Shown in pieces: positions 18,956 to 44,875 of a stretch of DNA of 64,000 bases (positions are counted from its first letter, which is position 1; each line of letters starts with the position of its first letter). The DNA lies in the NCBI GenBank assembly GCA_951406725.2, contig OX597816.1, forward strand, positions 39,556,001-39,620,000. Direction: 5' to 3'. The notes below the pieces were generated by a model that worked only from the letters and a program-made list of their open reading frames with translations, was not told where the DNA came from and searched no databases. A program made the position numbers and the translations under genes. The stretch comes from Octopus vulgaris. Its lineage: Eukaryota.

Positions 18956-19586
18956 TCCGCTTCTTGGTGAATGATCTCCCTTTGCAAGATAGAGGACGCC
19001 GTGATGGCGTCGGCCTATCTGGTGACGTTGATGTTCGCCTGGGGCTAAATGCAACAGTGACACCCCCACCACCCTGCCCTGTCCCTAGCCATATTCAGTT
19101 GGCTAATATCCCTTATATTATATATATATATAAATTAAATTAGAGATAAAACCACTATTAGGCAAATCAAACAGTGAAAAACATAAACCAAAACATAAAA
19201 ATAAATTAATATAATATACAATTAATTAATATAATTAATATAATATACAAAATATATAAAATATAATATTTAAAATTTAAAAAATATAAAATCAAATTAT
19301 CTAAATTTAAAATTTTTGATTTATATTTATAAATTTTTATATTTTTTAATATTTTTAAAATTTAAAATTTATAAATTTTTAAACTTTATTTTTTTAATAT
19401 TTATATTTATTTATTTATTTTTTTAATATAACTATCAAAATGGTATTAAAAAGTTTAATATAATATAATAAGTAAAACCACTACGTACGTTTCATGGCCA
19501 TAACCCAATTTATATTTATACTGTGAAATTTGATTTAATCCTAAATCTAATTTTTTCCCTGTAAGTTTGGATTTACTTCCTAATAT

Positions 19587-19666
<80 letters not shown>

Positions 19667-19672
<6 letters not shown>

Positions 19673-19920
19673 GTTAAAGAGGACAACAAACGCTAAGGCA
19701 AGACAAACATCCCAAGTCATAAACGTTATTATTGTTGAGATGTTTATCTTGCCTGAGCGTTTGTTGTTCTCTTAAACAATTATATATCCGCTATATCGGA
19801 AATCTACACTGGTTCCATAACTCCCGTCTCGGCTATGAGCTTGGAGCCCCGGAACTCCGTTACAGCACTTACCCACCGTACCTAGTCGTTTAGATCACCT
19901 GTGAACTAAACTCCCATATT
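19667..19920. mobile_element. Imperfect fold-back (about 50-bp arms) plus unique tail between microsatellites
   Basis: Hairpin at 19667-19785 directly after (TA)n. Same layout as 6828-7139. Confidence 0.55.
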
Positions 19921-19973
<53 letters not shown>

Positions 19974-19986
19974 TGTATATATATGT

Positions 19987-20053
<67 letters not shown>

Positions 20054-20080
20054 ATTGTATATATATATATATGTATTGTG

Positions 20081-20160
<80 letters not shown>

Positions 20161-20171
20161 AAAGGATGAGT

Positions 20172-20351
20172 GGCGGCTCCGGCAGAAGGTAATGGCAAAC
20201 GTCTGCTGACTCTTTCGCCACAACTCTTTCCTCCTGCATCTTGCAGCTCACCTCTGACGGACCGGCGTCCCGACCAGTGGGGAACCTATACGCCAAGGAA
20301 ACCTGGAAACCGGCCCTTATGAGCCAGGCGTGGCTCGAGAAGGAACAAACT
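20172..20351 (+). mobile_element. SINE family C, 5'-truncated, tail type iv
   Basis: Body GCTCCGGCAG..CTCTTTCGCCACAACT. Inverted copy at 21629-21872. Confidence 0.75.
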
Positions 20352-20689
20352 ATCAGTCGTGTAAGAAATTTCCCGTTAAGATTTCTTCAGGCAGAGAATC
20401 AAATAATAGGAAAGTTTTTACATGTTGGATAAACACGTACAATTTTGTGGTTCCTATTAGCAAATGAAACACGTGTAATGGTGAATCAGTAATACCAAAA
20501 AAGTAGAGGGAGAGGGATAGTCGATTACATCAGCCCCACTGCTTAACAGGCACTTTTTTTTATCGACCCTGAACTAATGAAAGGCAAAATCGACCTCGGT
20601 GGAATTTGAATGAGAACGTAAACCCAGAAGTACCCCTGTAAATGTAAACGTGGGAGAAGTGCCGTTCGCACCCTGTATATATATGTATG

Positions 20690-20741
<52 letters not shown>

Positions 20742-20750
20742 TATGTGTGT

Positions 20751-20787
<37 letters not shown>

Positions 20788-21628
20788 TATGTGTGTTGAG
20801 TGTATGCTTGCATTTTTATGCATATATACATGCTTTCGTTACACGAAAATGTCACTGATACTCACCACTTATATACTGTTTATTACAGTTTGGCACTTGG
20901 ATGATATCTCATATTCATTTCCCGATGAATTCTATTTATTAAACGCAAATAATTAATTTTAAAAAAGCCGTATCAATGCATTTTAAAAATCACTTTCTTT
21001 ATTCAATATTTCGGTCAACATCCTTTATCCATGAAGTCAAGGAATTAAACAAATTGAATTTAAAAAATAAACAAATCAAGAAGAAAAAAAATGAAATCGC
21101 TCGAAGCGCGAATGAAAAATGCCTGATACATATTCATCAGTTAATGCCTGTGCAGTGCAGATTCAATGAAGTTGGTGTCAGACATGATTTCAGTGTGCGT
21201 AATGTTTATGAAAAGATTCGGAGATACTGGATCTTAAAAACCTTCAGGGTTTTCATATGCCTGCTATGTGGGTTTCATACCGTGCATCCATGCAAGAAAA
21301 TGAAAACACAGTCTGCTTGATAAATAAGGACCTTTGTACAGAAGCTGAGAGTGGTTGTTTAGAAACAGTATAACCACAGTTAAGTTCTATGGAATTCTGC
21401 TTCGGTTATATGAGACTCGACGAAAGACTTGCGGAGTAACTGAAGTTTGTTCCTTAGGATAAGCAAATGTGGCAGAGTTATGTATCCGTTTGTTTGGAAA
21501 AACGCACGAGTAGAAAGATATACAGTTAGATAGATATACAAAAACATATTTATCCAACACGTAAAAACTTTCCTATTATTTGATTCTCTGCCTGAAGAAA
21601 TCTTAACAGGAAATTTCTTACACGACTG

Positions 21629-21872
21629 ATAGTTTGTTCCTTCTCGAGCCACGCCTGGCTCATAAGGGCCGGTTTCCAGGTTTCCTTGGCGTATAGGTTC
21701 CCCACCTGGTCGGGACGCCGGTCCGTCAGAGGTGAGCTGCAAGATGCAGGAGGAAAGAGTGAGAGAAAGTTGTGGCAAAAGAGTCAGCAGAAGTTTGCCA
21801 TTACCTTCTGCCGGAGCCGCGTGGAGCTTAGGTGTTTTCGCTCATAAACACACATCACCCGGTCTGAGATTC
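21629..21872 (-). mobile_element. SINE family C, tail type iv
   Basis: Reverse complement of 20172-20351, extending further toward the head. Confidence 0.8.
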
Positions 21873-21949
21873 GTACATTCGTGTATATATGTATATTTGT
21901 TTATGTGTATGTGTGTGTATGTGTGCGTGCAGACATTCATACCCTTAAT

Positions 21950-22131
21950 GTAGTTCCCAGAGAGATTCAGCGTGACAAGCTTGGGTTTTTGAAATACACA
22001 TACACTACTCATTTTTGCCAGCTGAATGGACTGGAGCAGCACGAAATAAAGTGGACACAACGCGCCGCTGGTAATTGAACTGACGACCTTACGATCTTGA
22101 GCCGAATACCCTAACCACTAAGCCACGTGCA
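21950..22131 (-). mobile_element. SINE family D (CORE-like), alternative tail
   Basis: Head GTGGCTTAGTGGTTAGGG and core GCTCCAGTCCATTCAGCTGGCAAAAATGAGTA on the minus strand. Confidence 0.7.
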
Positions 22132-22309
22132 TTCGGAATCCTGTATAAAACGAATTTATTTTAAACGATCATGGAAAGAATTAAAAATAAAAGAATGAAG
22201 ACGCATTTACTCCTGGTGCAATTTGAAATGATAATGTAGGGGATTTGGTGATTTCTCTATTTCTGCTGTTTCAATATATTTGCATAATTTAAATGTAGAT
22301 CTCTAATAC

Positions 22310-23066
22310 TGATTTCAAATTTTGGCACAAGGCCATCAATTTCCGAGGAAGGGCTAAGTCAATCACGTCAACCTAGTGCTCAACTGGTACTTATTTTATC
22401 GATCCGTCGGCGAAATTTGAACTCAGGACGTAAAGACGGGCCAAATGCTGCTAAGTGTTTCACCCGGCGTGCTAGCGATTTTACCAGCTCACTGTCTTGT
22501 AGATCTTTAATATTGCTTTCAAATTTTGGCGCAAGGCCAGGAATTTTGGGGGAGGGTGCTAGTCGGTTATATCGACTCCAGTGTTCAACTGGTACTTAAT
22601 TTATCGAACCCTGAATAGATGAAAGGCGATGGAATTTGAACCCAGAACATGTAGACAGACGAAATACTGCTAAACATTTTGCCCGGCGTGCTAACGATAA
22701 CCAACTCGCCGCATTTTTTTCTACTCTAAGCACAAGGCCCGAAATTTTTGGGGGAGTGGGGGGGGAAGTTGATTAGATCGATCCCCAGTACGCAACTGGT
22801 ACTTAATTTATCGACTCCGAAAGGATGAAAGGCAAAGTCGACCTCGGCGGAATTTGAACTCAGAACGTAAAGACACATAATACCGCGAAATGCTTGGTGG
22901 TATTTCGTCTGTCTTTACGTTCTGAATTCCAATTCCGTCGAGGTAGACTTTGCCTTTCATCCTTTCGGAGTCGATAAATTAAGTACCAGTTGCGTACTGG
23001 GGGTCGATCTAATCGACTGCCCCCCACTCCCCCAAACATTTCGGGCCTTGTGCCTAGAGTAGAAAA
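22310..23066. mobile_element. SINE family B cluster, including a head-to-head inverted pair (22718-23066)
   Basis: Four B bodies. The last two form inverted arms of about 165 bp. Confidence 0.85.
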
Positions 23067-23975
23067 GTAGATCTCATAATGACACATGATTATGAATAAT
23101 GTGTGGCTTAGTGTTTAGGGGTGTCACACTCATCATCACAAAATTGTGGTTTCGATTCCTGGACCGAGCGATGCGTTGTGTTCCTGAGTAAAGCACTTCA
23201 TTTCTCGTTGCTCCAGTTCATACAGCTGGTAAAAATGAGCCCATAGCTCAAGAAGAACCTCTGTTCCTTATTTTTTCAAAAAATAAAAGATGTACAGAGA
23301 GATATTGCCAATTTCATCAACTTTGTTACATATCTGTTACTTCTTTTCTCTTTCGAAAGATGAAGCTCGACTCCTGCAATAATTAAACTTAAACGATTCC
23401 GATGCAGCTAAATGCTTTATTACAATTCACTGAGACCAGCGCTGAACCAGTTTTGCCATTTCACTATTTGGTGTACTTTAACTTCAAGGTACTGAGACCA
23501 CAACTGTACAGACGTAACATGACCAAATGACTAAATAGCTTCTCAACCACGAGGTCCCAGTTTCGATCTTACTGTGTGGTTTCTTGGATATCTATTGCTA
23601 AAATCTAAGCCTTTTTGTGGGAAAATCAGGTGAATGGAAACCTGTCGGATGAACTGTACATGTAATTTTAAGTTAAAACTTTGTAGCGCAGCGTGTCACA
23701 GTGTTTCTGTTTGAAGATTACTCTGGAACACCGAATTGACTTATAAGTGGCTGACAGTTCTATCTGTCGGCGGAATACTCAGGCACTTATACGCTAATCA
23801 TTCAGTGATCGAACAGCTGAATATTCATCGTCGAAACAGACTGGGATCCGTTTGCAAATGTTTTCATTCTACTGCTAAACATATTTTAACTACAAAGCAC
23901 TAGTCCAACATTGTACTGTTTTCGCCATTCTGCTTGCTTTAACTATTGACTTATAATGTTGGTACAAAAGCTTTG

Positions 23976-24367
23976 GTGGAGGCGCAATGGCCCAGTGGTT
24001 AGGGCAGCGGACTCGCGGTCGGAGGATCGCGGTTTCGATTCCCAGACCGGGCGTTGTGAGTGTTTATTGAGCGAAAACACCTAAAAAAGCTCCACGAGGC
24101 TCCGGCAGGGGATGGTGGTGATCCCTGCTGTTCTCTCTCACCACAACTTTCTCTCACTCTTACTTCCTGTTTCTGTTGTACCTGTATTTCAAGGGGCCGG
24201 CCTTGTCATTCTCTGTGTCACGCTGAATATCCCCGAGAACTACGTTAAGGGTACACGTGTCTGTGGAGTGCTCAGCCACTTACACGTTAATTTCACGAGC
24301 AGGCTGCTCCGTTGATTCGGATCAACCGGAACCCTCATCGTCGTAACCGACGGAGTGCTTCCATTCC
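23976..24367 (+). mobile_element. SINE family C, full length, tail type i, with a 105-bp flanking direct repeat
   Basis: tRNA head TGGCCCAGTGGTTAGGG...GGTTTCGATTCC. Identical flanks at 23871-23975 and 24368-24472. Confidence 0.9.
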
Positions 24368-24924
24368 ACTGCTAAACATATTTTAACTACAAAGCACTAG
24401 TCCAACATTGTACTGTTTTCGCCATTCTGCTTGCTTTAACTATTGACTTATAATGTTGGTACAAAAGCTTTGACTAGCGCAGTCGATTAGAAGTACAGTT
24501 GATTGAATCAATCTCAGTATATTACTGAAACTTCTACAAAGGGAAGTCAACCTCTAACAAAATTTAAGCTCTTAAGGTAAATGGCTGTTATTAAATATTG
24601 CAGAATATTTTATCCGGCACTCCACTGATTCTGCTTTTCCATTTCTCATCATAGATATTGGTTTCAAATTTTGGTACATGAACAGCAATTTTGGGATAGG
24701 TGTACGTCGATTATATCGACCCCCAGTGCTCAACTGGTACCCTTTTTATCAACCCCAAAAGGGATGAAAGACAAAATCGACCTCGATGGCATTTGAGCTC
24801 AGAATGTGAAGACGGACGAAATGTCGCTAAGCATTTTGCCTGGCGTGCTAGCGATTCCACTAGCTCGTCGCCTTGTTCATCATCATAGATATTGATTTCA
24901 CATGGTTAGAATTTTATTTTTCCT

Positions 24925-25310
24925 TTTGTCTTTTACTGATTCCGTCATTAAACTGAAGCCATGCTGGGGCGCTACCTTGAAGAATTTTGGTCGTAACGAG
25001 TCGATCCCAGTACTTCTTTTTTGTAAGACTATTACTTATTCTACCTGTTTGCTTTGCTGAACCGCTAAGTTACGGGGACGTAAACGCACCAGCACCGGTT
25101 GTCAGGCTGTGGTGGAAGACAAACACAGACTCAAAGACACACACACACACACGCGCGGCGGGCTTCTTTCAGTTTTCGACTACTAAGTCCATTCACAAAT
25201 CTTTGGTCGGCTCGAGGCTATAATAGAAGACACCTGCCCACGATGTTACGCAGCGGGACAGGACCCAGAGCCATGTGGTTGTGAAGCAAACTTCTTATCA
25301 CACATCCACC
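24925..25310 (-). mobile_element. SINE family A, diverged
   Basis: Similar to the reverse complement of 676-1090. Confidence 0.8.
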
Positions 25311-25326
25311 TATTATATTTCTTTTT

Positions 25327-25867
25327 TTCGCCCTTTTCAAGCCTAGCCAGGCTCATGGGCCCGGTTTCCTGGTTTCTGTGGCGCATGTGTTCCCCCCCAG
25401 CTGGACGGGACGCCAGTCTATCGTAGCGTTACTCAAGAAACAGGAAGAGAGCGTGAGAGAAAGTTGTGGCGAAAGAGTACAACAGGCCTCGCCCCCTGCC
25501 GGAGCCTCGTGGAGCTTTTAGGTATTTTCGCTCAATAAACACACACAACGCCCGGTCTGGGAATCGAAACCGCGATCCTCCGACCGCGAGTCCGCTGCCC
25601 TAACCACTGGGCCATTGCGCCTCCACAAACGCGCCCTTTTAAAGCCTCATGGACCCGGTTTCCCGGTTTCTATGGCGTATGTGTTCCCCAGCTGGACGGG
25701 ACGCCAGTCCATCGCAGCGTTACTCATTTTTGCCAGCTGAGTGGACTGGAGCAACGTGAAATAAAGTGTTTTGCTCAAGAACACAACGCGTCGCCCAGTC
25801 CAGGAATCGAAACCACAATCTTACGATCATGATACTGACAGCCTAACCACTAAGCCACGCGCCTCCA
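25327..25867 (-). mobile_element. Adjacent SINEs sharing tail ii: family C (25327-25627) and family D (25630-25867)
   Basis: Two tRNA heads on the minus strand. Both tails match GCGATGGACTGGCGTCCCGTCCAGCTGGGG. Confidence 0.85.
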
Positions 25868-26187
25868 CCCACCTATTATATAAGGTTATATAATTGATTT
25901 GATCGCCGACAGTATTTGGCTGTTACTTTACTTCATTGAGTTTGAGAAGATAAGTTGAACTTAACGGAGATTGAGCTCTGACTGAACATAATGAATGTCC
26001 CGTAACGAAAATAATTTTGTGCGATACTCAAACGATTCTTTTGTCGCCCCTAGTGGGTAATAAAGAAATGACTCAAACGATTCTTTCCAGTCTGAATCAT
26101 ACACTCTATTGTTCTCTTACATAGACACAAGGTCTCGTGCTTTTGGTGGAAGAAAGGAACAGTGAATTATATCAAGCCCAGTACATA

Positions 26188-26224
<37 letters not shown>

Positions 26225-27289
26225 GAAAAGCAGAGTGGTTCTTGACGGAAACTGAATTCAGAACGGGTTGTAACTAAATGCTGAAAGTAGATTTGTTCGA
26301 CGCGCTGACGATTCCAGCAATCCACGTAACATATTTTAGGTATTGAGGACACTAAAAGTACTTACTGAAACAGTGGTTAACTAGTGCGAGGAAAGCTATA
26401 AAAACATTATATGCTGGCCTTATATTTCAATAAAATCTTTTTATTTTTCTTTCCAGATAATCTCCTCTTTTCTTTCAATTGCTGTTCTTTCTGTTGAATG
26501 TTATGCTGGCGTTTTCTTATCTTCACATTTAACATTTATTGTTTTGTGCTGAAAACTAAAATAAAACAAAATATATGAAGTTAGCAAAAACCGAAATGTA
26601 TTGCCTTTGAGATTAGAACTCAGATATGTTAGATAAACATATCATTCAGAAGTGTGGGAGGGATATGACACTTGCACATGGTGTCTGTTCCTGAAGCCTG
26701 TTCAGAGTATTGATATGATACTGTTGAAGAGAATAAAGAAAGACTTCACGCTGGGGTAAGTTGTTTTGTAGCTTTTAAAGAATTCTAGCAATGTGTCAGA
26801 GCAGATCTGTTACAATATTTGATAAATTTCACAAGGGGAAAAAGGCAAACTATATTGTGAAGCCATTACATGTGCCTTATCTTAAATTGGTTATTTACAC
26901 AGTAGTTCAAATTTGGTGTGGTTTCAACCACCTTCATGATTGAAATTGCTTGCTTTCTCTTTAGAATTATGTGCTTTATCTTTGAGTTAAATGTTCAACT
27001 TTGGCGCAGTTTAATCCACAAACTGGGACTGAACTAGTTTCATCCCTGGTTCTTTGGAGTCAAATTTGATGAAGTTGACTAGTTAACGAACACTGTAAAA
27101 ATCTCGAGTATTAGAGAAAGGGAAGTGGAAAAACAATATGGCAAATGAAATAGGTTCATCAAGGAAATAAACAAGGTCGCATATTATATGACAGGAATAA
27201 GTAATAGAAGCGCAGGAATGGCTTATTTGAAAATTAGAAATAGTTGTAATAGTAGCGGCAATGACACTGGTTTTGAATCTCTGATCGTC

Positions 27290-27490
27290 GTCCTCGGAGA
27301 TCAGGGTATCTCTTTCGGTCGAGTCGCTATTTCACTGCATTGAGAGGCCACAACTCTGGCACTACGGATATGTAATTAGATTGTCGCAGGAAAAAAATTG
27401 CGGGATGGATTCTCCAAGTCCAGCCAACCTGCAGGAAACCTAGGGGTAGGCTAAGAACAAGATGGTTGGATAATATTGTCCTGTACTTTT
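27290..27490 (+). pseudogene. Decayed RTE-like LINE C-terminal fragment
   Basis: Reads IERPQLWHYGYVIRL...RKPRGRLRTRWLDNI, like the RTE QLRWYGHV..RGRPRTRW motif. Confidence 0.55.
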
Positions 27491-28247
27491 CCAGGTTTAT
27501 AATATTAAGGATTTTATTTCTCTTACTCGCATTTTCCCATGTAATCCCATGTTTTTTCCAGGCTATGCTATTATACTAATTAATGATGTGTCAAATGTGT
27601 CAATTAGCGATGTCGCTGATAATTTTTTCCTTAGCTCAATGACGCCGGTGTCATATATTAAAAGTCCCCTCATAGAACTATATTCATAAAAGGTATAAAA
27701 CTATATCATCACCCTCAAATTTGAGAAACTAACACTCATAACATTTTTCTTTTAAAACTTCATTGCATGAGATTGATACCATGAAATTCCTCAAATTGAG
27801 CTCTATCATTTAAGCTTAATTAAAATATAGATTGTTTTTATTATAAAAAGTTAATAATACTTAGATTTAATTTTTTGCCGTATATATTTTTTCATGATAT
27901 TTTATCTCAGAACTTTTTTGGTATAAATTTTTGTTGCATGGGAACAAAACTATGAAATTCTTTATGCTTTCTTCTCTCATTGAAGCTAAGATAAATATAT
28001 TTTGCTTTTCAAAAAAAAAAAAAAAAAAAGTTATTTAGATCTAAACAATGAATAACTCTTGGAACGTATGAGTGATTGTAAATAGATAAATACATAAAAA
28101 TGAAGAGATAGACGAAGATAGGCTATATATGAAATAGAGCAAAAACGTAAGTGGGTTTTTGAAATAATATTATGTTGTGTTGTCAAACTTAGGTATTCGT
28201 CTATCAAGCTGCATTACAGTTTCTTTTATAGGCATAGAGGTTACAGT

Positions 28248-28632
28248 GTGGAGGTGCAATGGCCCAGTGGTTAGGGCAGCGGACTTGCGGTCGTAGGTTC
28301 GCGGTTTCGATTCCCAGACCGGGCGTTGTGAGTGTTTATTGAGCGAAAGCACCTAAAAGCTCCACGAGGCTCCGGCAGGGGATGGTGGTGATCCCTGCTG
28401 TACTCTTTCACCACAACTTTCTCTCACTCTTACTTCCTGTTTCTGTTATACCTGTATTTCAAAGAGCCGGCCTTGTCACTCTCTGTGTCACGCTGAATAT
28501 CCCCGAGAACTACGTTAAGGGTGCACGTGTCTGTGGAGTGCTCAGCCACTTACACGTTAATTTCACGAGCAGGCTGTTCCGTTGAGTCGGATCAACCGGA
28601 ACCCTCATCGTCGTAACCGACGGAGTGCTTCC
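28248..28632 (+). mobile_element. SINE family C, tail type i, 12-bp TSD
   Basis: Near-identical to 23976-24367. AGAGGTTACAGT on both sides. Confidence 0.9.
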
Positions 28633-28644
28633 CCAGAGGTTACA

Positions 28645-29671
28645 GTATCAATTTCCAGCTGTTCTTTTAGTTCACGACACGCATTCAGTTGTGATTGCTT
28701 TTGGTCTTCCGTGAACAAGTGCAACACAAATTTCGCTGCAACTCTTATCATTCGCTATTCCTGCCTCAAAAATTCGTTGGCAGCAGCTGCAGGACACACC
28801 AGTCATATCAGCCGGTTCGTCAATTATTCGGTGACGTCAATTATTCGGTGACGTCAATTATTCGGTAGGAGTGGCTGTGTGGTAAGTAGCTTGCTTACGA
28901 ACCACATGGTTTCGGGTTCAGTCCCACTGCGTGGCACCTTGGGCAAGTGTCTTCTACTGTAGCCTTGGGCCAACCAAAGTCTTGTGAGTGGATTTGGTAG
29001 ACGGAAACTGAAAGAAGCCCGTCGTATATGTGTACATGTATGTATATGTGTATGTGTGTATGTATGCTTGTGTGTCTGTGTTTGTCCCCCCAGCATCGCT
29101 GGACAACCGATGCTGGTGTGTTTACGTCCCCGTAACTTAGCGGCTCGGCAAAAGATACCGATGGAATAAGTACTAGGCTTACACAGAATAAGTCCTGAGG
29201 TCGATGTGCTCGACTAAAGGCGGTGCTCCCTCATGGCCACAGTCAAATGACTGAAACAAGTAAAGGAGTATGTGTTCATTTGTTCGAGAGGTCGACGGTC
29301 CCCCTGAACGAGGTTGGTCTTCAAGTGACAAATGATCATTCCTAAAGCGCGAAAACCATTCGTAAACTTGCGTGTAGCTCATGGCAGCGTCCTTGTAAGC
29401 TGTTTGAAGCATGACAACTGTTTCGGCCGCCGTTTTTCCCAGAAGAAAGCAGAATTTCACGGAAGCACGCTGTTCCTTCGCTTCAGCCATCGCAAAAATC
29501 GACGAAATACGAGAAAAGCACTACAAAACAAAGATGCACAACGTGGCAATACGACCTCACTCGCCAGTCAGCAACTGATGCCTGAGGGTCGCATCAAGTG
29601 GCTGCTAGTGTAGAAGCCTGAACTACAACTGGCTTGTTCTACATAGAACGTTACTTTTGGGTACCTCCTCG

Positions 29672-29672
<1 letters not shown>
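28645..29672 (-). mobile_element. mariner remnant interrupted by a SINE
   Basis: ORF 29179-29490 reads EQRASVKFCFLLGKTAAET...VYEWFSRF...EDQPRSGGP. It resumes at 28645-28860 as RVAAKFV.HL.TEDQK. TIR-like end TACGAGGAGGTACCCAAAAGT at about 29643-29673. Confidence 0.8.
28866..29268 (+). mobile_element. SINE family A inserted in mariner
   Basis: Matches 676-1090. Confidence 0.9.
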
Positions 29673-29716
<44 letters not shown>

Positions 29717-29719
29717 TTT

Positions 29720-29905: not shown

Positions 29906-30036
29906 ATCATTTTTGTCGAACCTCTAAGTTACGGGAACGTAAACACACTAACACCGGTTGTCAAGCAGTAGTGGCGGACAGAGAGGGATAAAGGCACACA
30001 CTCAGACACACACACACATCCACGTACACATACACT

Positions 30037-30268: not shown

Positions 30269-30362
30269 AACAAACAACAACAACAACTGAACAAGTGTTA
30301 ACAATGATAAAGATTTAGACTACAGATATATTTGGAGATGGGCTGTCTGAATTAAAATTTCG

Positions 30363-30611
30363 GCAATTTCAACCAATCAATGACGTCCATTGAGGTAAAC
30401 AACATTCTGTGCCGTATGAATATGTCCCTCGTTTAAGAAACAGATTGGGTTTATTTACATTTGTGAAGAAAAAAAGATACCCTTCCTCCCACCCCTAACC
30501 CTAACCCTAAAACAGATTAAAATGCAATAGATCGATACTAGGGTCATAATTATGGGTGACAATTTCATATGACACCGCTAGAAAAAACTGCCGTTCAAAC
30601 CGAAAAGATCC
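30363..30611 (-). mobile_element. Truncated Merlin-like MITE, inverted
   Basis: Reverse complement of the left about 250 bp of 15495-15917. Confidence 0.8.
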
Positions 30612-30982
30612 CCGTTTTCTAATACTCGCTGTTGCCCAAAATACTCGCTGCAAGTCAAAATGAATTGGGAAATTCAAGCATAGCACACATGCTTCGTGGC
30701 TGTCTGTTGACTTTGAAAGATAGCATCAGAACTTGGAATTAACCATGACAGTATTCAAAACTAGAAATATCACATTTCTAAATGTCTCAAAGAGACATGA
30801 GCGGTGGTGGAGCAATAGAGTGGTTGTATACTGTCAACATAACGTGACAGTCCCGTAAGGGAATTACATCACCGCTGTTTAGTCCTAGGAGGCATCGACA
30901 CTTCCTGTCGGCTTTGACACATTTCCTGTGTCATTATATTTGTGAAGGGGAGGCAAGTACCCCCACCAGCTAGGACTAGCAA

Positions 30983-31029
30983 CCTGAGGACATGCATGTT
31001 TCTGGGTCTTAATCCGTCATCAGCCCAGG
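30983..31029 (-). ncRNA. Type I HHR, canonical core
   Basis: Minus strand CCTGGG-CTGATGA-CGGATTAAGACCCA-GAAAC-ATGCAT-GTC-CTCAGG. Confidence 0.8.
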
Positions 31030-31045
31030 ATAGTGAGATCTACTG

Positions 31046-31091
31046 CTGGGCTGATAACGGGTTAAGACCCAGAAACATGCATGTCCTCAGG
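31046..31091 (+). ncRNA. Type I HHR with an uncompensated G8A change
   Basis: CTGGG-CTGATAA-CGGGTTAAGACCCA-GAAAC-ATGCAT-GTC-CTCAG. Confidence 0.7.
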
Positions 31092-31530
31092 TGTGAATCC
31101 TAGCTGGTGGGGGTGCTTGCCTCCCCTTCACAAATATAAGGACACAGGAAATGTGTCGAAACCGACAGGAAGCGTCGATGCTTCCTAGGGCTAAACAGCG
31201 GTGAGGTAATTCCCTTACAGGACTGTCACGTTATGCTGACAGTATACAACCACTCTAGTATTCAAAACGTTATTGAGTTATTTGGATATTCAAAAGTTTG
31301 TGTTCGCTAGGTACCAAAACAACAGATAGACGAGCCCTGGACTGAAAGAGTTAACGAGTGCACTGAAAACCTTGAACTCAGTGAAACAAACACCTTCTTT
31401 CAAAGGGTCATAAATGGTGACGAAACTGGATTCATCATTACGGACCACGTTGTTGATAAGCAATCTTCTGACCACACAACCACGCTAATGCTGTCCATAC
31501 ACATGGGCAACAGCGTGTATTAGAAAACGG

Positions 31531-31948
31531 GGATCTTTTCGGTTTGAACGGCAGTTTTTTCTAGCGGTGTCATTTGAAATTGTCACCCATAATTATGACC
31601 CTAGTATCGATCTATTGCATTTCAATCTGTTTTAGGGTTAGGGTTAGGGGTGGGGGGAAGGGTATCTTTTTTTCTTCACAAATGTAAATAAACCCAATTT
31701 GTTTCTTAAACGAGGGACATATTCATACGGCACAGAATGTTGTTTACCTCAATGGACGTCATTGATTGGTTGAAATTGCAGAAATTGCAGAAAAAAAACA
31801 ACAAATATCTTACAAACTATAGAATTTTCTCAATAAAGCCAAGAGAAAAAGATGTTTTTATAAACACATTCTACCAGTATACGAAGTTTAAAATTTTTTA
31901 GTTACCTAGAAATTATGTTAAAAACTGCCGTTCAAACTGAAAAGATCC
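31531..31948. mobile_element. Merlin-like MITE, full copy without matching TSD
   Basis: Near-identical to 15495-15917, both TIRs present. Confidence 0.8.
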
Positions 31949-34330: not shown

Positions 34331-35388
34331 TTCATTGTAGGTTTCTTAATAAACAGAAATACCTAATAAAATGAACATGTATCTTCTTACTGTTTCTGTT
34401 GTCTCTTCATTGATTGTACGTTATTATCATTTAAAAAAAATTGTTATATTAATATATTTGTCTGCATGTCTTTACTTTATGCGTATTTCAGTATTATGTA
34501 TACCTGCCATGTATTTGTATTAAAGGAAAGGAAATTAAAAAATTAATAAACAAACAACTGGAAGCGATACTTATCGTAAAAGGTACAGTCCAAACCCGTG
34601 GGCTAAATTTCAGTTAAGCTGTTGAAATGTGAAGCTAACGGCTTAAGAAATACTGCTAATTTAAATGTTTATGAATAATTTAAATGTTTATTATCCTAGT
34701 GAAATCATAAATCCAGCTGAGTCAATGAATCTCTGAAGCTTGGCAATACTGAGTCGATGAGTCACCAATGCTTTGTTAGTACTGTGTTTGAAGTACAGGT
34801 GTGCGGTTGTGTACTAAGTTCACATTCCATTCACCTTCATAACGCCAAGAAACTGCATAAACATCGCAAACAACTTTTGCTATATATGAAAAATATGCAG
34901 AATATTAAGACAATTGACGAAAAATATCTATAATAAAATTCTAATTGATAAAAATAAATTTTTTATTAAAACAAAACACGCGGGTGAAGTAAATCTCGTG
35001 GTGTGAAACATCAACACAACATGCGGGTGAAGTGAAACACAACACAACGTGCGGTTGTCATGGTAACAAGCTGTTAATGCCACGCTGTCTGTTGGTTGGC
35101 TAAAATTACCCAAATATCCCAACTTTAGTTTTAAATAACATAAAATTTTTAATTTACGAAGTAATTGGTTGATCGTAATCAAAATTCAGAGTTGCTTCGA
35201 TACACCAAAATTGAAAGCAATCTGAGAAAAATTAAAGGGATGGGGATGGGGGTGGGGGGCATTTTGCGAATGAAACTAACCAGATCCAATATGTCTTCAG
35301 TTCTGTTGTAGATGGATGGGAGAGTCATGGAAGGTTTGTATATATTCATGTATAAAAATGGGAATAAAAATAAAAATAAACATTTAAT

Positions 35389-35436
<48 letters not shown>

Positions 35437-35891
35437 GAGTCTTCCACTTTGCTTGTATACAGATATATACTTTTTATGTGTGCATGTTGGTTTGTGTGGT
35501 TACATTAAAAAATCTTTTTGGAGATTTTGGTTGGCGATAGGAAAACTTCTAGTCATTTTCTAGAGTAATTTCTTAGTGTAAAGCTGTTTTTTTGTTGATA
35601 TTGTGGGAAGAGTTTGTGGTGTAGGTTGATGGAGGGGAGTTGATGAGATATTAACAGGTTTAGCCATTAGAAAAGATTTTGGGTTTAAAGTGTTTTAGTG
35701 TTTGTAAGATTTTGTGCTTGCACGAAGAGAAAAGTCCGTTTAAATTCAGAATTTAGTCTGTAACTCAGAGTTACAACTGTGATGTTGTTGGTAAAACATG
35801 TTCTTTGTCTATCTCCTTATCCTCTTGGTGATTTTGGACAAAAAAAATTATACAAATGAGTCCTTCGAATTTAACTAAATTCTACATTTTT

Positions 35892-35980
35892 ATGCAGCTG
35901 AGGATTGCTCTACATTTTAAATTGATGTAATGTTTGCATTGTTCAATTAAATGGAGTCGCATGAAACGATCGTACTGCAT
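35892..35980 (+). ncRNA. Type I HHR, canonical core, long stem II
   Basis: Stem I ATGCAG/CTGCAT. CTGAGGA 35898-35904. Stem II base TGC/GCA. GAAAC-GATC-GTA 35963-35974. Confidence 0.8.
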
Positions 35981-36126
35981 TACCTCTGGATATCCTTGTT
36001 GCTTATTTTGATTATAATCAAATTATTTTAAATTATATGGATAATACCATACTAAATTCTGGTGCCTTCAACTTAAGTACCATATTCATCTGAATCTAAA
36101 TTTTACTGAACTTATATATATATATA

Positions 36127-36639
36127 TCTATATATATAAAACTGTAGTTGTGTGAGTGTCTGTCCCCTTCGATTTAGATTCCTAACTACTCCCACATTTT
36201 GCGGTGCAGTTTAACCAAATTCGGGTATCTTATAGTCGTGATTCATATCGAGCCCGTCTGAGTATTAGCGCGCGTCTACGATGAGTCTACGATTTTAAAA
36301 ATAATTTAACATAATTTTTTATTCCATTTTAATGCATAATTTTTCGTGTGTCGATGGCGGCGGAGTTGGCGTCCATGGTCACACTTGCACCTGTTTGCTT
36401 CTCCCCCTTCTTCCCTCCCTCGTGAAGCTGTGGGGAAGGGAGTGTAAGGAAATCAACGTCGTAAAGCGTTGTCAAGGAGACCAGCGTTCTTTTAGAACAA
36501 CGACTTCATGGCTTGAAGACACCAAAACAGAAATGGCTAAGAAAGCCCGAATTGGCATCTATAAGGGAAGTAACTCTCTAAAAATGCTTATATAGTTATT
36601 TCCCTCACAAACCCGAGCAACGCCGGGCGATACTGCTAG
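36127..36639 (+). mobile_element. Non-autonomous Helitron
   Basis: A|TC start, subterminal hairpin CCCGAGCAACGCCGGG, CTAG|T end, no TSD. Confidence 0.8.
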
Positions 36640-36673
<34 letters not shown>

Positions 36674-38515
36674 CAATGACCCGCAAAATTTTACAACACA
36701 GTCAAAAATCCAAGTTTACATATAGTGAGTTAACGCACGTTAATGAAACTTCTACCCTTTATGAAGTTTTTTGTAATAAATTCAATGCAACAAGTAGAAT
36801 TACATAATAATGAATGGAAAAAAAATTATATGGAAAAAAGTTGAAATTCAAAACGTAAAAGTTTACAACACATTTCTACAATCAAATCACTATTTAGTTG
36901 CATAACCCTTGTTGATGATGATGAGAGCTTGCAGTCTCCTAAATACTTTTTAAATGTGATGGGCTTATTTTACCCATTCTTTTACACAAATTCTTTTCAG
37001 TTCTTGTAACGGTTTGTTTTTGAACTCTGAGTTTCAATTCTTTCTTCAAATTTTCGATTGCATTAAGGTCCGGAGATTGACTTGGACTTTCCAGAACATT
37101 AATCCCGTTTGTTTTCAGCCAACTTTTGGTCAGCTTTGCTGTGTGCTTTGAATCATTATTCTGTGGAAAGGCTTATCCTTGCTCCAAGTTTTGGAAGCGA
37201 GCATTAGGTATTACACATCTCTCTAAAATCCCCTTATATTTTTTGCCATCTATTGTTTCTTCGAATATTTCCATTCTTCCAACACCTGATGAGCAAAAAC
37301 AAGCTCTTACCATTACTGATCCACCTCCGAATTTGACTGTAGGGATAATATTCTTTGACGCGTATTCCGTGTCATTCTTTCTACAAACCTTGTTGATCGA
37401 ATTTCTGCGGAAAAAACTCGATCTTGCTTTCGTCAGACCAAAGTACGTTTTTCCATTATGTTGCCGGTTCATTTAGATGTGTTTTTTCAAAGGCCAAACG
37501 AGCTTTGACATGACGTTTCGCAAACAATGAGGTCTTGGAGAACAAGAAAAGAGATCATAACGATGAAGTGATCTACTAATTGTATCTTTTCTCACATGTA
37601 CTTCACATGTTTCCAGGTCTTCCTGCAGCTCCTTGAGTGTGTTTGTGTTCTATTACTAGCTGTTCTTGTAAGCTTTCTTGCTGTAGCTCTGCTAACTTAC
37701 GTGAGCAACCGGAGCGGACTAGAGGGAGAATGGAATTGCGAGATTTACAGTTACGTATTATTGTACCTGTGGAGGCGCGTGGCTTAGTGGTTAGGGTGTC
37801 AGCATCATGATCGTAAGATTGTGGTTTCGATTCCTGGACCGGGCGATGCGTTGTGTTCTTGAGCAAAATACTTCATTTCACGTTGCTCCAATCCACTCAG
37901 CTGGCAAAAATGAGTAACGCTGCGATGGACTGGCGTCCCGTCCAGCTGGGGAACACATACGCCATAGAAATCAGGAAACTGGGCCCATGAGCCTGGCGAG
38001 GCTTTAAAAGGGCACATTTATTTATTTATTTATTTATTATTTTACCTACTGAACTCAGGAGCACATTAAACTGTGCAGAGATCTTTCTGTGCCCACTGCC
38101 ACTCTTATGAAGATTAACTATATACCCATGGAGGTGTGGACTAATTTATTCTTACCCATGATGATGATGATGTTCACTCTACAGTGATTCTGTCAGAACT
38201 GATGTAGTGGCTATAAATACTCACAAACGAAACTTCCTGAACCTTCTAGAACACTGTAGGTATTCTGGAAAAAAATTTATTCAAAATATCTGGAAAATTA
38301 TTCAATTGAGTTAAACGTGTTGTAAACTTTTGCGTTTCGAATTTCAGTTCTATTATATAAGAATTTTTTTCCGTTCATTGTTTTGTAATTCTGCTTGTTG
38401 CATTGAATTTATTACAAAAACCTTCATATATGTAGGAAATTTCATTAACCTGCGTTAACTCAATATATGTAAATTTGGATTTTTGATTGTGTGTTGTAAA
38501 CTTTTGCGAGTACTG
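36674..38515 (-). mobile_element. Tc1-like transposon, decayed, long TIRs
   Basis: TA-flanked inverted ends with internal repeats. Minus strand has [21 protein letters not shown] and SQSPDLN.IE motifs. Confidence 0.88.
37769..38040 (+). mobile_element. SINE family D (CORE-like, tail ii) inserted in Tc1
   Basis: tRNA head, core TTGTGTTCTTGAGCAA..ACTTCATTTCAC, (TTTA)n tail. Confidence 0.85.
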
Positions 38516-38557
38516 TAAACGTTTATATATGTATATAAGTCTCTCTTTCTTTCTTTA

Positions 38558-38645
<88 letters not shown>

Positions 38646-38647
<2 letters not shown>

Positions 38648-38988
38648 AGCTGGGGGGAACACATGCGCCACAGAAACAGGGAAACGTCGCCCTTTTCAAG
38701 TATAGCCAGGCTCATGGGCCCGGTTTCCCTGTTTCTGTGGCGCATGTGTTCCCCCCAGCTGGATGGGACGCCAGTCCATTGCAGCGTTACTCAAGAAGCA
38801 GGAAAGAGAGAGTGAAAGAAAGTTGTGGCGAAAGAGTACAACAGGGGTCACCACCATCTCCTGCCGGAACTTCGTGGAGCTAAGGTGTTTTTGCTCAATA
38901 AACACACACAACGCCCGGTCTGGGAATAGAAACCGCGATCCTCCGACCACGAATCCGCTGCCCTAACCACTGGGCCATTGCGCCTCCA
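38646..38988 (-). mobile_element. SINE family C, tail ii, with a short inverted tail fragment
   Basis: 38646-38684 is the reverse complement of about 38723-38762. Confidence 0.85.
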
Positions 38989-39472
38989 CATATATATATA
39001 TATATAAATATGCGCGCGCGCATATAGACATATATATGCGCGCCCGAGCGTCTCTGTATATATGTATGTATAAATATCACTAGTTGTTTTGCAATATTCT
39101 TGATGGAAAAATCATATGCTGAAACCGATGTGGTATCTTAGGAGGGTCATTTGGCCTATATGAAACACGCGAATCGGTCTCTTTTGCTGCTTTTTATTAT
39201 TATGAAACAGCTAGTTTACTAATTAACCAAATGGTTAATCAAATAACTTGGTTAATTTTTCGATCAGGCCTGAAGGAATGAGAGCGTGTCATTGATGAAG
39301 TCACGAATGGCATCGAAAGGACTCTGCTAAATCAAGTGATTAAGAAGCAATCGATTAATTAGATGTTAATTAGTTAACTAGCTGCGTAATAATTTAAAAA
39401 AAGAGAAGTGAAATTGAGCCAGCACATATGTTTTATTGTAAAAATGACCTTCCCAAAATACAAGAACGCACA

Positions 39473-39512
<40 letters not shown>

Positions 39513-39784
39513 ACACATACGCACACACACGCACTCACACATATACACGGACACACATATTTACATATATGCATACACAAATGTATGCGTATATACAAGA
39601 GGAGAGGTAGGTATATATATATATATATATATATATGCACATATGCATATACAAATGCATAAATTACAGAAATAAGAATGCGTATAATTTTTAACTTACC
39701 CTCGTACATATATATGTATATATATATATTAACAAGGAGAGTGGAAATTGATATATATATATATATATTTGAAATATATATATA

Positions 39785-40001
39785 CTCTTTTACTCTTTTA
39801 CTCTTTTACTTGTTTCAGTCATTTGACTGTGACCATGCTGGAGCACCGCCTTTAGTCGAGCAAATCGACCCCGGGACTTATTCTTTGTAAGCCCAGTACT
39901 TATTCTATTGGTCTCTTTTGCCGAACCGCTAATTGACGGCGACGTAAACACACCAGCATCGGTTGTCAAGCAATGCTAGGGGGACAAACACAGACACAAA
40001 A

Positions 40002-40066
<65 letters not shown>

Positions 40067-40236
40067 CATATACGACAGGCTTCTTTCAGTTTCCGTCTAC
40101 CAAATCCACTCACAAGGCATTGGTCGGCCCGGGGCTATAGCAGAAGACACTTGCCCAAGATGCCACGCAGTGGGACTGAACCCGCAACTATGTGGTTGGT
40201 TAGCAAGCTACATACCACACAGCCACTCCTGCGCCT
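39785..40236 (-). mobile_element. SINE family A
   Basis: Matches the family A consensus. Confidence 0.9.
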
Positions 40237-40340
40237 ATATGTATATATATTTGTATATACACACATGCATACATAAATGCATACATACATACATATATAT
40301 ATATATATAGGGAGAGAGTGAAAGAGAGAGAGGGGGAGAA

Positions 40341-40430
<90 letters not shown>

Positions 40431-40852
40431 GTGTGAATGTGAAAGTGTGTGCGAATACGCAAGCGCGTATGCCGGATAATCTGTGAGAATTATTGCTGGA
40501 AGTTGTATTATCTTAATAAATATTTCATAAAGCAATTAAGACGTTTTCGCACGTTGGGAATCTTCTCACAAACATATGTATTTTGTTTATCAATTAGCTG
40601 AAAATTCTAGTGCTTCCGCTTGGAAAATATCACACAGACGACTAGGAGTGATCAGCCAATGTTTGTTTATAGTCCGCAAAAGCACAGCAAAATGTAAGAC
40701 AAAAGTTGTGCACGTGTGAGGGCTAATGTGCTCGGGTGGTTAAAAATGGGTTCAGTTCTAGTTTGTGTATTTTGGGTGTGTTTCTTCCATCATAATCTCA
40801 ACGAGTGAAACTTAGGAGACAGAAACGAAACTAGGTGAAAAAGCAATCTTTT

Positions 40853-40905
<53 letters not shown>

Positions 40906-41067
40906 ACGTATGTATGTATGTATGTATGTATGTATGTATGTATGTATGTATGTATGTATGCATGCATGTATGTATGTCTTACACCGTGGGATACTCTCAA
41001 CACCTAACCGATTGTATCGCATCATGAAGCATTGCCCGTCAGCTTTGTATATACATACATACATACA

Positions 41068-41139
<72 letters not shown>

Positions 41140-41691
41140 TTGTGTGTACACATGTTTTTATGTGGCTCAAGAAGTACAAACTCTACCCTCTATTCTTTCC
41201 AACGACTCCGTGAGCGCTATATTATTTGTATAACGTGGGAAATATTCCATCAACATTGCCCTAATGATGTTGCATCAGCTTTAAAATTCACCCTACGCTT
41301 GGTCTCCGCCCCATCCGCCCTCTACAAAAATCATGTTCGTGTTACATTACAAGACTTAATAGACAGAACTGTTTCATCTCGCCTGGCCCTACTCCCCTTA
41401 ACATCACGTCCGAACATCATATCAAGAAAAAGACCTCATAACATTCAAACGGTTACTAGACGAATCCATCCAGCAAATTCAGGATAAAACACCTACACCC
41501 GGATATATCTCCGTAAATCATAACTCTTTACTCGAATGGGCCATGACACCCAAAGTATGATCGTAGCATGAAACGTAATAAAATGGTTTTTTTTTCCAGT
41601 TGGAGCAGTTAGGTTAGTCATGGCCTAGGCTAGTTCTAGCCAACACCTATCTAAGTATTTAAGTATCTAATTATACATATATAATATGTAT

Positions 41692-42122
41692 ACGTTCTGA
41701 GTTCAAATTCCGCCGAGGTCGACTTTGCCTTTCATCCTTTCGGGGTCGATAATTGAGTACCAGTTACGCACTGGGGTCGATGCAATCGACTTGATTCGTT
41801 TGTCTGTCCTTGTTTGTCCCCTCTGTGTTTAGACCCTTGTGGGTAGTAAAGAAATATATATAATATTCAGAGGGCTCAAAGCAAACATTCCAGGAATGGT
41901 ACCAAATATTGGTTTAAAATTTTGGCACAAGGCCAGCAACGTCGGGAAGGGGTTAAGTTGATTACATCGACCGCAGTGTTCAACTGGTACTTACTTTATC
42001 GACGCTGAAAGGATGAAAGGTAAAATCGTCCTTGGTGGAATTTGAATTTAGAATGTAAAGACGGACGAAATGCTGCTAAACATTTTGCCCGGCGTGCTAA
42101 CGATTCTGCCAGCTCGTCGCCC
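41692..42122. mobile_element. Two family B SINEs in opposite orientation
   Basis: B core at 41692-41855 (+) and 41910-42122 (-). Confidence 0.8.
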
Positions 42123-42312
42123 TGTTGGTACCAAATATTAAACACACTCATTGCTGCTCACATTGAGGATCATTGGCAGCAAGAAACATGCCAGGAAAAT
42201 TGTACGAAGACCACATTGGAGAAGGCAATGAAAGTAGATAATGTTATACAAATTCATCTTTTAAACTATTGTATTTTTAGTGATTTTTTTGTGAGGATAT
42301 ATACAGGGTCTA

Positions 42313-42870
42313 TGTTGTGGAGAGAGTACGACACCCTCTGATGAGAATAGACGGGACCATTACATATAAACAGTAGCGGTCTGACGTAGTTAGTAGTTCG
42401 TAGTTTGGTCTTCGAAGTCCTAGTATCGTTTACAGTTCGAGTTAGTGTGTTGGAAATATTGATTGTGGGTTCGTAAAAGATTGTTGGTTCGTTGAGTGTT
42501 AGTCACTGCCATTGTTATATCTTGTATTGTTATAACGCTGCTACAGTGTATTCTTTTTCTATCATCGACAATAACAATTGTACTACGATATTGGAGGCGT
42601 AAGGATATAACATCTGGCGGAAGGATATAACGAGGCGACGATAGGTTATTTGATAATTTGTGCGTCATAAAAGTTGTTAATTTATGGAGAACCTATTAGC
42701 TTCAGTAACACAACTTCAAGAAAAGCAACAGGAACGACTACAGAAGTTGCAGAAGCAAATATTACAGCAACAACAACAACAGCAGTCAACTGAGTTACAG
42801 TCAAGGAAGTCCGAAAGTTCAGTTACGTCAGAAGGCGCGGCAAACTCGATTTCTGAATTCACTTAGGTTC
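42313..42870 (+). mobile_element. Possible Gypsy-like LTR, PBS and gag start remnant
   Basis: TG...CA segment 42313-42612, then TGGCG (PBS-like), then the Q-rich ORF 42684-42866. Confidence 0.4.
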
Positions 42871-43350
42871 TCCATAAATTAACAACTGGAGCTGTTACAG
42901 AAATACAATGTTGATTTTCTGGTTGGATCAAAGTTAAAAGGTACAAATGAAGCTGCTCAGAGGTGTGACCGAGGAACTTCATTGGATTTTTCATTTTCAT
43001 TTTCATCTCATCTTGTTTACATACGTTTTTTGCATTTTTCTTTTTTCTTTGTTTTGTAAGTGCCAGTTATCGACTTAATCCCTTTGTCTGTCCTTGTTTG
43101 TCCCCTCTGTGTTTATCCCTCTGTGAGCAATAAAGAAATAAATATAATAAAAGAATAGGATTTACTTACTGAGACCTTGACTGCAATAGAACAAACATTA
43201 AGGAATAAAACTTAATTAGATACGTCATAGAGAGTTTTACTCATATTTGCCGTCATACGTATTTCTAGAGAGTTGTCTAGCGGGTTGAATAACGAAACGG
43301 GTTAAGGATATTTACTTTATCGTAGTTTCTCTGGGCGATTTGATTTTCAG

Positions 43351-43424
43351 TGGTTCATTTCCTGATTGTCAAACGGACGGATTTAAAACTATTTATAGTC
43401 AGCATACTGAGATATTTTGAAAAG
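43351..43424 (+). other. Candidate small exon
   Basis: TTGATTTTCAG acceptor and AAG|GTAAGT donor in non-repeat DNA. One frame is open. No homology recognised. Confidence 0.2.
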
Positions 43425-44003
43425 GTAAGTAAATAATATTTATTTGGTTGGTTAAATGTTTCATAACAGAATTTAGAACAAAAGAAAGAAATAGATTATA
43501 TTTTCGCTATATTTTCACATGCGAGAATTAATTTTAGACTCACTCCTGTCTGTGTTTGTCATTAGATATTGGCCTTTAAAGTTTCAAATGCAGTATTAAC
43601 CAAAGTCACGCGGGTTCTTTTTTCTTTTTTACCTTTCCACAAAAGTGGAACTTACACACACACACACACACACACACATGCCTTTATATATATGTGTGTG
43701 TATACATACATGTACTGTATCCATGTGTGTATACATATATATGTATATATATGTATACACACAACACATACATACATTATGTATGTATGTATGTATGTAT
43801 GTATGTATGTATGTATGTATATATTTAATTATTGTTAAATTTAGATCCCATGGAAAAATCACGTAAACCAGGACTCCCCAGCAACCAGCGAGCAGGTCAG
43901 TTCCGGGCCGCAGAGAGATAATAAATTTTAGAATTTAATTTCTGTTTTATTGACTAACGCACTGTGCAGGGTGTTTTTGCATTACACACACGCACACACA
44001 CAC

Positions 44004-44073
<70 letters not shown>

Positions 44074-44139
44074 GATTATGTACGTATGTATGGAATACAT
44101 TTTTGTTGATCTTACCACCACAGAACAGTACATTATCTA

Positions 44140-44465
44140 TCTATCCATATATATATAAAGATGAGAATATCTGCCTGTATGTCTGTCTGTGTGAATCCCT
44201 AAAACTTGTGAACTACACAACCAATTTCATTCAAATTTTACACATGCATTACTTAGGGTCTATGTAGTGTCATAGGCCAAAAATGTTTTTAACTTCTTGC
44301 CTAGTGCGAGACCAAAGCAATATCATATCTTCTCCACTATTTCAGTATTACGTTTCAAAAGTGAAACAATAACATCTCTCTATTGTTATTGTTATGTCAG
44401 ATATTTTCACTTTAATAGTTTCACTTTGATGCTGAAACTATTAAAGTGAAACTATTATCTCACAT
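44140..44465 (+). mobile_element. Helitron-like 5' portion
   Basis: TC..TATATAAAG..TGTCTGTCTG start, resembling 36127. Confidence 0.4.
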
Positions 44466-44619
44466 ATATACAGGCATACATACAGTAATCTCTTTTAGAG
44501 AGACTTAGTAATTTTAATATTTCTATTATTGAAAACAAGTGAATGTATTCCACCGAAACCAGGTAAATAGATTCTTCGAACAGGGACAGTCAGTAGAGAC
44601 ACCTGCTGGGTCTGACTAC

Positions 44620-44662
44620 GCTGCATTGATAAAGGGCAACTACTCTGAAACGCGTCTGCAGC
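44620..44662 (+). ncRNA. Type I HHR, U3-A8 core variant
   Basis: GCTGCA-TTGATAA-AGGG-CAACTA-CTCT-GAAAC-GC-GTC-TGCAGC. Outer helix CCTGCT/AGCAGG. The element runs to (TA)n at about 44832. Confidence 0.8.
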
Positions 44663-44875
44663 TGTCTGACTAGCAGGATGAAGCGGCTGACCTCCCCTGG
44701 TCGAAAGTCTATAATGGACGCAGATTGTGTGTCAAATAGCTAGCTTGAGACGGTGGCCTCTTGGAGCTAATCATCGACAACTTTAGTCTTATATCTATAA
44801 GATTGCCATATTAGTATGGCGATAACTATTAATATATATATATGTATATATGTATATATTATATTAAATTAGAGA

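Follow-up and report, generated by a model that had tools for sequence, protein, structure and literature searches.

A covarying RNA arm downstream of the hammerhead in three retrozyme-type repeat families of Octopus vulgaris: a candidate docking signal for a helper reverse transcriptase

A 64,000-nucleotide (nt) stretch of Octopus vulgaris DNA (assembly GCA_951406725.2, contig OX597816.1, positions 39,556,001 to 39,620,000 of the forward strand; hereafter the window, numbered from its first letter) holds three diverged, non-coding repeat families, each with a minimal type I hammerhead ribozyme. They were named e1 (site near 18976), e2 (near 31121) and e3 (near 44692), and are the only families in hand. 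Downstream of the hammerhead they share a 54-nt core, in which a hairpin of 6 base pairs (bp) with a 5-nt loop (hairpin 1) is followed by a hairpin with a GAUG-bearing loop (hairpin 2) and by RCUAA. The anatomy of this core, its covariation and its fixed spacing to the insertion ends are the observations behind a reading to which we lean by a little: the core would be a cis signal that docks and positions the reverse transcriptase (RT) of a helper Penelope-like element, so that copying starts a fixed distance downstream. A non-coding passenger must keep whatever its helper enzyme reads, and from this we infer that the core may serve to dock the helper and to fix the start.

The distance from the start of hairpin 1 to the end of CTAA was 54 nt in all five arms, as follows.
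18995..19048, + strand: e1 core (hairpin 1 at 18995-19011; closing stem 19012-19016/19042-19046; hairpin 2 at 19021-19039; CTAA)
18426..18479, - strand: copy of the core in the e1 inverted arm (pattern match and arm measurements)
31141..31194, + strand: e2 right core (hairpin 1 at 31141-31157; hairpin 2 at 31167-31186; GCTAA)
30879..30932, - strand: e2 left core (pattern match and arm measurements)
44717..44770, + strand: e3 core (hairpin 1 at 44717-44733; hairpin 2 at 44746-44761, decayed in the window copy; GCTAA)

Across the three families 21 of the 54 core columns were invariant, as against 5 of the 37 directly downstream. Hairpin 2 differed between e1 and e2 by three two-sided changes around a GTYGAT loop, and differences within the e3 family at 44746, 44750 and 44753 (74-100% of depth) restored two pairs and GATG. 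The closing stem of the second hairpin formed in the full e1 monomer (p 0.82) and not reliably in e2. Since two other hammerhead elements of the window were found without the core, it is the mark of a single lineage, not of such elements in general.

An earlier note, made from the letters of the window, had described at these sites a module opening with CTCCC about 30-35 nt past the cleavage site and ending in GCTAA. Much of that description was borne out: CTCCC starts at 18976, 31121 and 44692 (32, 36 and 36 nt after the predicted cut, and 32-37 nt over the five arms), GCTAA ends at 19048, 31194 and 44770, the three 6-bp hairpins with 5-nt loops are exactly as noted, and inverted copies lie at 18426-18498 and 30879-30952. 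The outline of the module had to be redrawn. In e1 and e3 CTCCC belongs to a 2x2 loop of a rod that lengthens helix I of the hammerhead, and the stretch is part of a retrozyme-type monomer, with a linker paired upstream of the hammerhead in these two families, instead of a free-standing module. A closing stem AGCC/GGCT, assigned to e2, exists in neither arm, as AGCC is a left-arm and GGCT a right-arm sequence, with a mismatch in each. Nor does the conserved region stop at GCTAA: it continues into a tail-pairing helix and into an additional hairpin (hairpin 3), which RNAalifold placed in all families with a constant 8-nt loop.
19086..19105, + strand: e1 hairpin 3, with its 8-nt loop, shortly before the arm end
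31222..31243, + strand: e2 hairpin 3 (7 bp, 8-nt loop), with AC-rich sequence from there to the end of the arm at 31256
44802..44823, + strand: e3 hairpin 3, predicted fold
19054..19061, + strand: 5' strand of the e1 tail-pairing helix, with its partner at 18773-18780 in the circular monomer and at 18347-18340 in the inverted arm (p 0.89)
30806-30800 with 30876-30870, - strand: e2 tail helix (p 0.96)

In the tail helix, the strand directly past GCTAA is predicted to pair with the tail, in letters that differ between families (ACAGTGAC/GTCACTGT in e1; AGCGGTG/CACCGCT in e2). The e3 partner lies in the letters of the joint between units, where two complementary versions were read by eye from contig tables. 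A TCTC/GAGA hairpin follows the tail helix in all three families.

Sequence likeness between the families is faint, blastn at word size 7 giving no match between any two of them, and is carried by structure and position. Pairing was retained while letters changed, as the earlier note had claimed: over hairpins 1-3, 8 of 20 pairs were changed on both sides and 91% of 80 cells paired, a covariation score reached by none of 500 shuffles, while slid registers paired in 27-54%. The e3 family, multi-copy in contigs from four sequencing runs with four organism labels, was used for a second count. From the 40 of 54 rows listed, 33 differences were considered, the 7 at or before 44560 being omitted; 22 fell in helices, of which 16 kept or made a pair, 4 broke one and 2 stayed unpaired (7.0 pair-keeping differences expected for random letters, P 1e-4), with the caveats that depth shares are not copy counts and that registers were set partly with the variants in view. 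The e3 family majority paired better than the window copy, and subfamily differences were mostly pair-keeping. A covariance model trained on e1 and e2 alone returned e3 as its top non-training match over 128 kb, at full length (E 0.11). Sequence-only leave-one-out profiles recovered the left-out family in two of six trials (E 0.035 and 0.37), so that detection by sequence likeness alone is marginal. The core pattern, written after the sites had been seen, matched five times in the window and in none of 100 shuffles; no further copies of the core were found in the window.

Scans of sequence collections with core patterns returned viral (5 + 9), metagenome (22) and prokaryote-genome (11) loci. 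These 47 loci were treated as chance matches because none has an upstream hammerhead; one of them, L031, scored E 0.007 with model R1, had been pre-selected by pattern and was set aside likewise.

The arms are laid out in the window as follows.
18736..19121, + strand: e1 right arm, a 355-nt monomer plus a 31-nt terminal repeat (18736-18766 recurs at 19091-19121), ending at (TA)n
18310..18684, - strand: e1 inverted arm, longer by a 44-nt tail (18310-18353) and adjoining (TA)n
18673..18740, - strand: e1 junction, with short inverted copies of the tail (self-BLAST)
30762..31256, no strand: e2 head-to-head insertion, bounded by a 12-bp duplication (30750-30761 and 31257-31268)
30762..30816, - strand: e2 tail of 55 nt, on the left arm only, carrying the TCTC/GAGA hairpin
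44485..44830, + strand: e3 single arm, 346 nt of a tandem monomer of about 365 nt, ending at (TA)n

Published systems are cited here for the passages compared. The non-LTR (long terminal repeat) retrozymes are short tandem units that carry type I hammerheads and no coding sequence (PMC7229834); they are reported to stem from Penelope terminal repeats (10.64898/2026.07.22.740005). Judged from their sequence, e1, e2 and e3 are of this Penelope-derived type, of which the inverted truncated partner and the one-sided tail seen in e1 and e2 are hallmarks; e3 is a single arm. Of the features by which retrozymes are recognised, the following were found: a type I hammerhead, a tandem unit of 150-450 bp, a GC content below 50% (0.45 in e1, 0.42 in e3), a target duplication of more than 4 bp (12 bp at e2; none readable at e1 and e3 inside (TA)n) and no protein-coding capacity. 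The unit period is 355 nt in e1 and about 365 nt in e3, where contigs of all four runs join 44830 to 44485 across some 19 letters; e2 is truncated too far to give one. Each arm in the window has one complete hammerhead, and contigs of the e3 family are too short to span two units.

As side observations on the surroundings, the same AT-rich start, TAAATTAGAGAYAAAA, follows a short TA run behind e1 and e3, at 19136 and 44865, and has no other occurrence in the window. Directly upstream of e3 lies a separate repeat of high copy number (44330-44480), which contains a palindrome. Around e2, 283-nt inverted arms (30356-30638 and 31504-31786) are 98% complementary, and the flank resembles a mariner remnant by eye, with a Mos1-type helix-turn-helix match at 29182-29520.

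Untailed arms of all three families end 171-177 nt past the predicted cut, 60-73 nt past CTAA and 10-18 nt past hairpin 3, which places this end in the loop that the tail helix closes; the tailed arms end 220 and 228 nt past the predicted cut. Because this distance to the insertion ends is fixed, RT recruitment fits best among the four functions that the earlier note had offered; of the others, a DNA promoter is disfavoured and a second catalytic motif gained no support, on evidence given below. In the course of events that we would propose, tandem transcripts would be cut by paired hammerheads, and the long rod would keep their ends in place so that a host ligase could close the circle. The arm with its two hairpins, together with unpaired letters (GAUG, UC and AA), would be bound by the helper protein, which would nick AT-rich DNA. 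Reverse transcription may start directly past hairpin 3, within the loop closed by the tail helix, and an alternative start about 45-55 nt further on would produce the one-sided tail.

Several points weigh against such a docking function. The covariation rests on four rows from three related families, with helices picked after the sequences had been seen, and the shuffle control overstates significance because the three families share one ancestor. The e3 count draws on 40 of 54 rows, its excess of pair-keeping differences is modest under a transition-only null (P 0.03), and 4 of the 22 in-helix differences break a pair. The AC-rich end stretch occurs in e2 only. No helper element carrying the core was present in the window or among the 47 collection loci, and the core was not seen in the consensus ends, as far as compared, of four Naiads from cephalopods and a Hydra element from octopus. 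In the anole Poseidon element PAc, RT starts 85-92 nt past the cut (by subtraction), as against about 175 nt here. Finally, stability or ligation could instead be what preserves this structure. The hammerheads and the folds around them are listed here.
18905..18950, + strand: e1 hammerhead, minimal type I, U3-A8 core, palindromic helix III, predicted cut after 18944
31046..31090, + strand: e2 right hammerhead, with a C3/A8 mismatch, predicted cut after 31085
44620..44662, + strand: e3 hammerhead, U3-A8 core, predicted cut after 44656
18864..18991, + strand: e1 rod lengthening helix I (predicted pair probabilities 0.5-1.0; z -5.2 for 18850-19121)
44567..44712, + strand: e3 rod lengthening helix I, with CTCCC (44692-44696) in its internal loop

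Hammerhead cores lie at 18911, 31051 and 44626, and those of the inverted copies at 18563 and 31023; core, helix I and palindromic helix III are present in all five arms. The e2 left hammerhead (core 31023, - strand) has C3-G8, and in the e3 family CGCG is replaced by CATG at 48%, which preserves the palindrome. Everything between the cut and the end of the variable linker, CTCCC included, is predicted in e1 and e3 to pair upstream of the hammerhead; e2 is cut off too early to show the rod or its absence. The UC of the e1 CTCCC (18976-18980) sits in a 2x2 internal loop between C-G pairs, and that of e3 in a matching loop when the A-to-G difference at 44588 (39% of depth) is present. Upstream of the rod, e1 and e3 have in common a stretch around TGTATT (18832-18847 and 44539-44553), which can be read as a small hairpin whose loop is UGUA.

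These folds suit an explanation in which the arms scaffold the circular RNA, for hammerhead folding, host ligation, stability or host-protein binding, with RT recognition elsewhere, for example in hairpin 3 alone. The e1 monomer folds far better as a circle than its shuffles (z -6.0), CTCCC is part of a rod that would hold the cut ends together, and retrozyme circles are reported to be highly self-paired and RtcB-ligated (PMC7229834). For a scaffold, however, pairing suffices, and invariant loop letters and an exact length of 54 nt are not needed; moreover, the two other hammerhead elements of the window form long folds without the core motifs. We regard this explanation as unlikely, but as one with some weight.

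Another explanation starts from the reported descent of retrozymes from Penelope-like terminal repeats (10.64898/2026.07.22.740005): the core may have been inherited from the parental terminal repeat or the start of its open reading frame (ORF), with a part there in translation or splicing or as coding sequence, and would have no function in the monomers. The ORF of the anole element begins inside its hammerhead (PMC11167929), and CCTRGGGCTAA, 11 letters with which the e2 and e1 cores also close, follows a C-run in the 5' regions of the consensus sequences Naiad-3_Chem and Naiad_Adux (PMC8557442 supplement). In these Naiads it stands without intervening hairpins and apparently in coding sequence, and may reflect chance or coding. 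Against inheritance, no reading frame is common to the families, and stops occur in each of the three sense frames of e3. A scan of 150 of 157 open frames found no Pfam family inside the elements or next to them. A 115-residue frame across e1 had one weak match among 1.84 billion proteins, unsupported by BLASTP. Likewise, the better pairing of the e3 family majority and its mostly pair-keeping subfamily differences speak against a sequence without a present role, and an idle remnant seems distinctly unlikely.

YCC and GCUAA presumably recall the L3 and J4/2 strands of hepatitis delta virus (HDV)-like ribozymes, where they stand in the same order. Together with the invariant loop letters, this would favour a second ribozyme, perhaps a rearranged HDV-like fold using UCC and GCUAA pieces. 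The L3 YCC and J4/2 CNRA letters are present, yet CTCCC is tied up in the helix I rod, and no P1, P3 or nested double pseudoknot (P1, P1.1, P2, P3, P4) was found in the elements. HDV-like folds numbered zero in five arms on both strands, under strict and relaxed descriptors, and no candidate twister core (P4/L4 with T1 pseudoknot) was seen in four arms; the descriptors were written for this analysis (a simple one for twister), with no positive control. Rfam gave no match at gathering level and, at E up to 10, unrelated weak matches and no ribozyme family for any element, in a search insensitive enough to miss the hammerheads too. A second ribozyme appears highly improbable, and we give the same slim chance to its particular form in which the core and the UC loop of the rod would make up a new self-cleaving or ligating motif, with HDV-like pieces reordered, beside a weak dimer-dependent hammerhead. 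The broader proposal of the earlier note is supported in the form of a conserved, covarying and non-coding RNA structure that matches nothing in Rfam.

The slightest chance is given to the motifs acting as a DNA-level internal promoter of tandem monomers. The monomers must have some promoter, and one could consist of short motifs with a constant spacing, but compensatory stem changes indicate a folded strand, and no RNA polymerase III A or B box was matched in any of the three elements on either strand. Nor do the elements look like tRNA-derived short interspersed elements, since these boxes are missing and ARAGORN found no tRNA genes.

A few other structures were considered and dropped. A closing stem CTCC/GGRG showed no two-sided change and had a predicted probability of 0.00. 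For the hairpin GACCT/AGGTT and the helix GCTGA/TCAGC, tried as HDV P3 and P2, the rod and the tail helix offer a better explanation. Branch point, H/ACA, selenocysteine insertion sequence and tRNA mimic were rejected after by-eye comparison with consensus sequences.

Metazoan non-LTR retrozymes share with e1-e3 a type I hammerhead, a non-coding monomer of about 355-365 nt, GC below 50%, a long target duplication and a strongly self-paired predicted circle (PMC7229834; 10.64898/2026.07.22.740005). They differ in that the hammerheads here are minimal and palindromic with U3-A8, of Penelope-like type, and in that copies are single or inverted and not in long arrays; in the passages compared, these two accounts describe no conserved arm beyond the hammerhead. 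Penelope-like elements are alike in their inverted 5'-truncated partners, one-sided tail and (TA)n targets (PMC8557442) and in minimal hammerheads with a U3-A8 core and palindromic helix III (PMC4209133). Unlike them, the present elements have no RT or GIY-YIG ORF in or beside them, no GIY-YIG domain appeared in the window among the 150 of 157 open frames covered, and the tails measure 44 and 55 nt against 30-40 bp reported.

The closest parallel is PAc, the only Penelope-like element reconstituted in vitro, whose required RNA lies mostly 3' of the hammerhead cut: RNA from +20 to +172 of the ORF is needed, and the cut is at +26 (PMC11167929). Its hammerhead depends on protein for cleavage, and the RT begins inside a stem-loop, at positions that agree with both the genomic ends and the tail (PMC11167929). 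Common to PAc and the octopus families are a structured RNA on the 3' side of the hammerhead, ends at a stem-closed loop and a second end that would give a tail. In the latter this RNA is non-coding, about twice as far from the cut and preceded by two extra hairpins; the 96 letters of PAc compared contain neither CTCCC nor GCTAA.

No description of the core was found in the literature, within the parts compared, including PMC10085705 and PMC6765202. The elements are of a known kind, retrozyme-type, whereas their conserved internal architecture is apparently undescribed; the families may be catalogued in Repbase or Dfam. Retrozymes are thought to borrow a Penelope-like RT, but the literature, as far as consulted, does not name the RNA feature by which the enzyme would recognise them. 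With most of their sequence likeness gone and their arms, loop letters and end distance retained, the three families offer a concrete candidate with a ready mutation map. Penelope-like elements are the closest retroelement relatives of telomerase; should docking prove right, it would support the helper model, explain the tail and the inverted junctions of copies, and provide a telomerase-like case in which an RNA structure sets the copying start.

Other features of the window are recorded here. The first of the hammerhead elements without core motifs (5860-6170, + strand, with an inverted partial copy at 4799-4946) has its hammerhead, with a core at 5971 and a long helix II, at the outer end of a rod that is predicted to be long; the hammerhead of the second (50150-50734, - strand; core 50440) belongs to a partial tandem that repeats about every 450 nt. 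Other mobile elements have left remnants at 2550-3335 (-), 48903-49571 (+), 62972-63172 (+) and 36942-37172 (-), the evidence for them being a long interspersed element-like frame read by eye, weak zf-RVT and RVT_1 matches and a DDE_3 match. A family resembling short interspersed elements, with a 184-nt tandem period, occupies 55629-56114 and 57113-57482 and has at least 14 dispersed matches.

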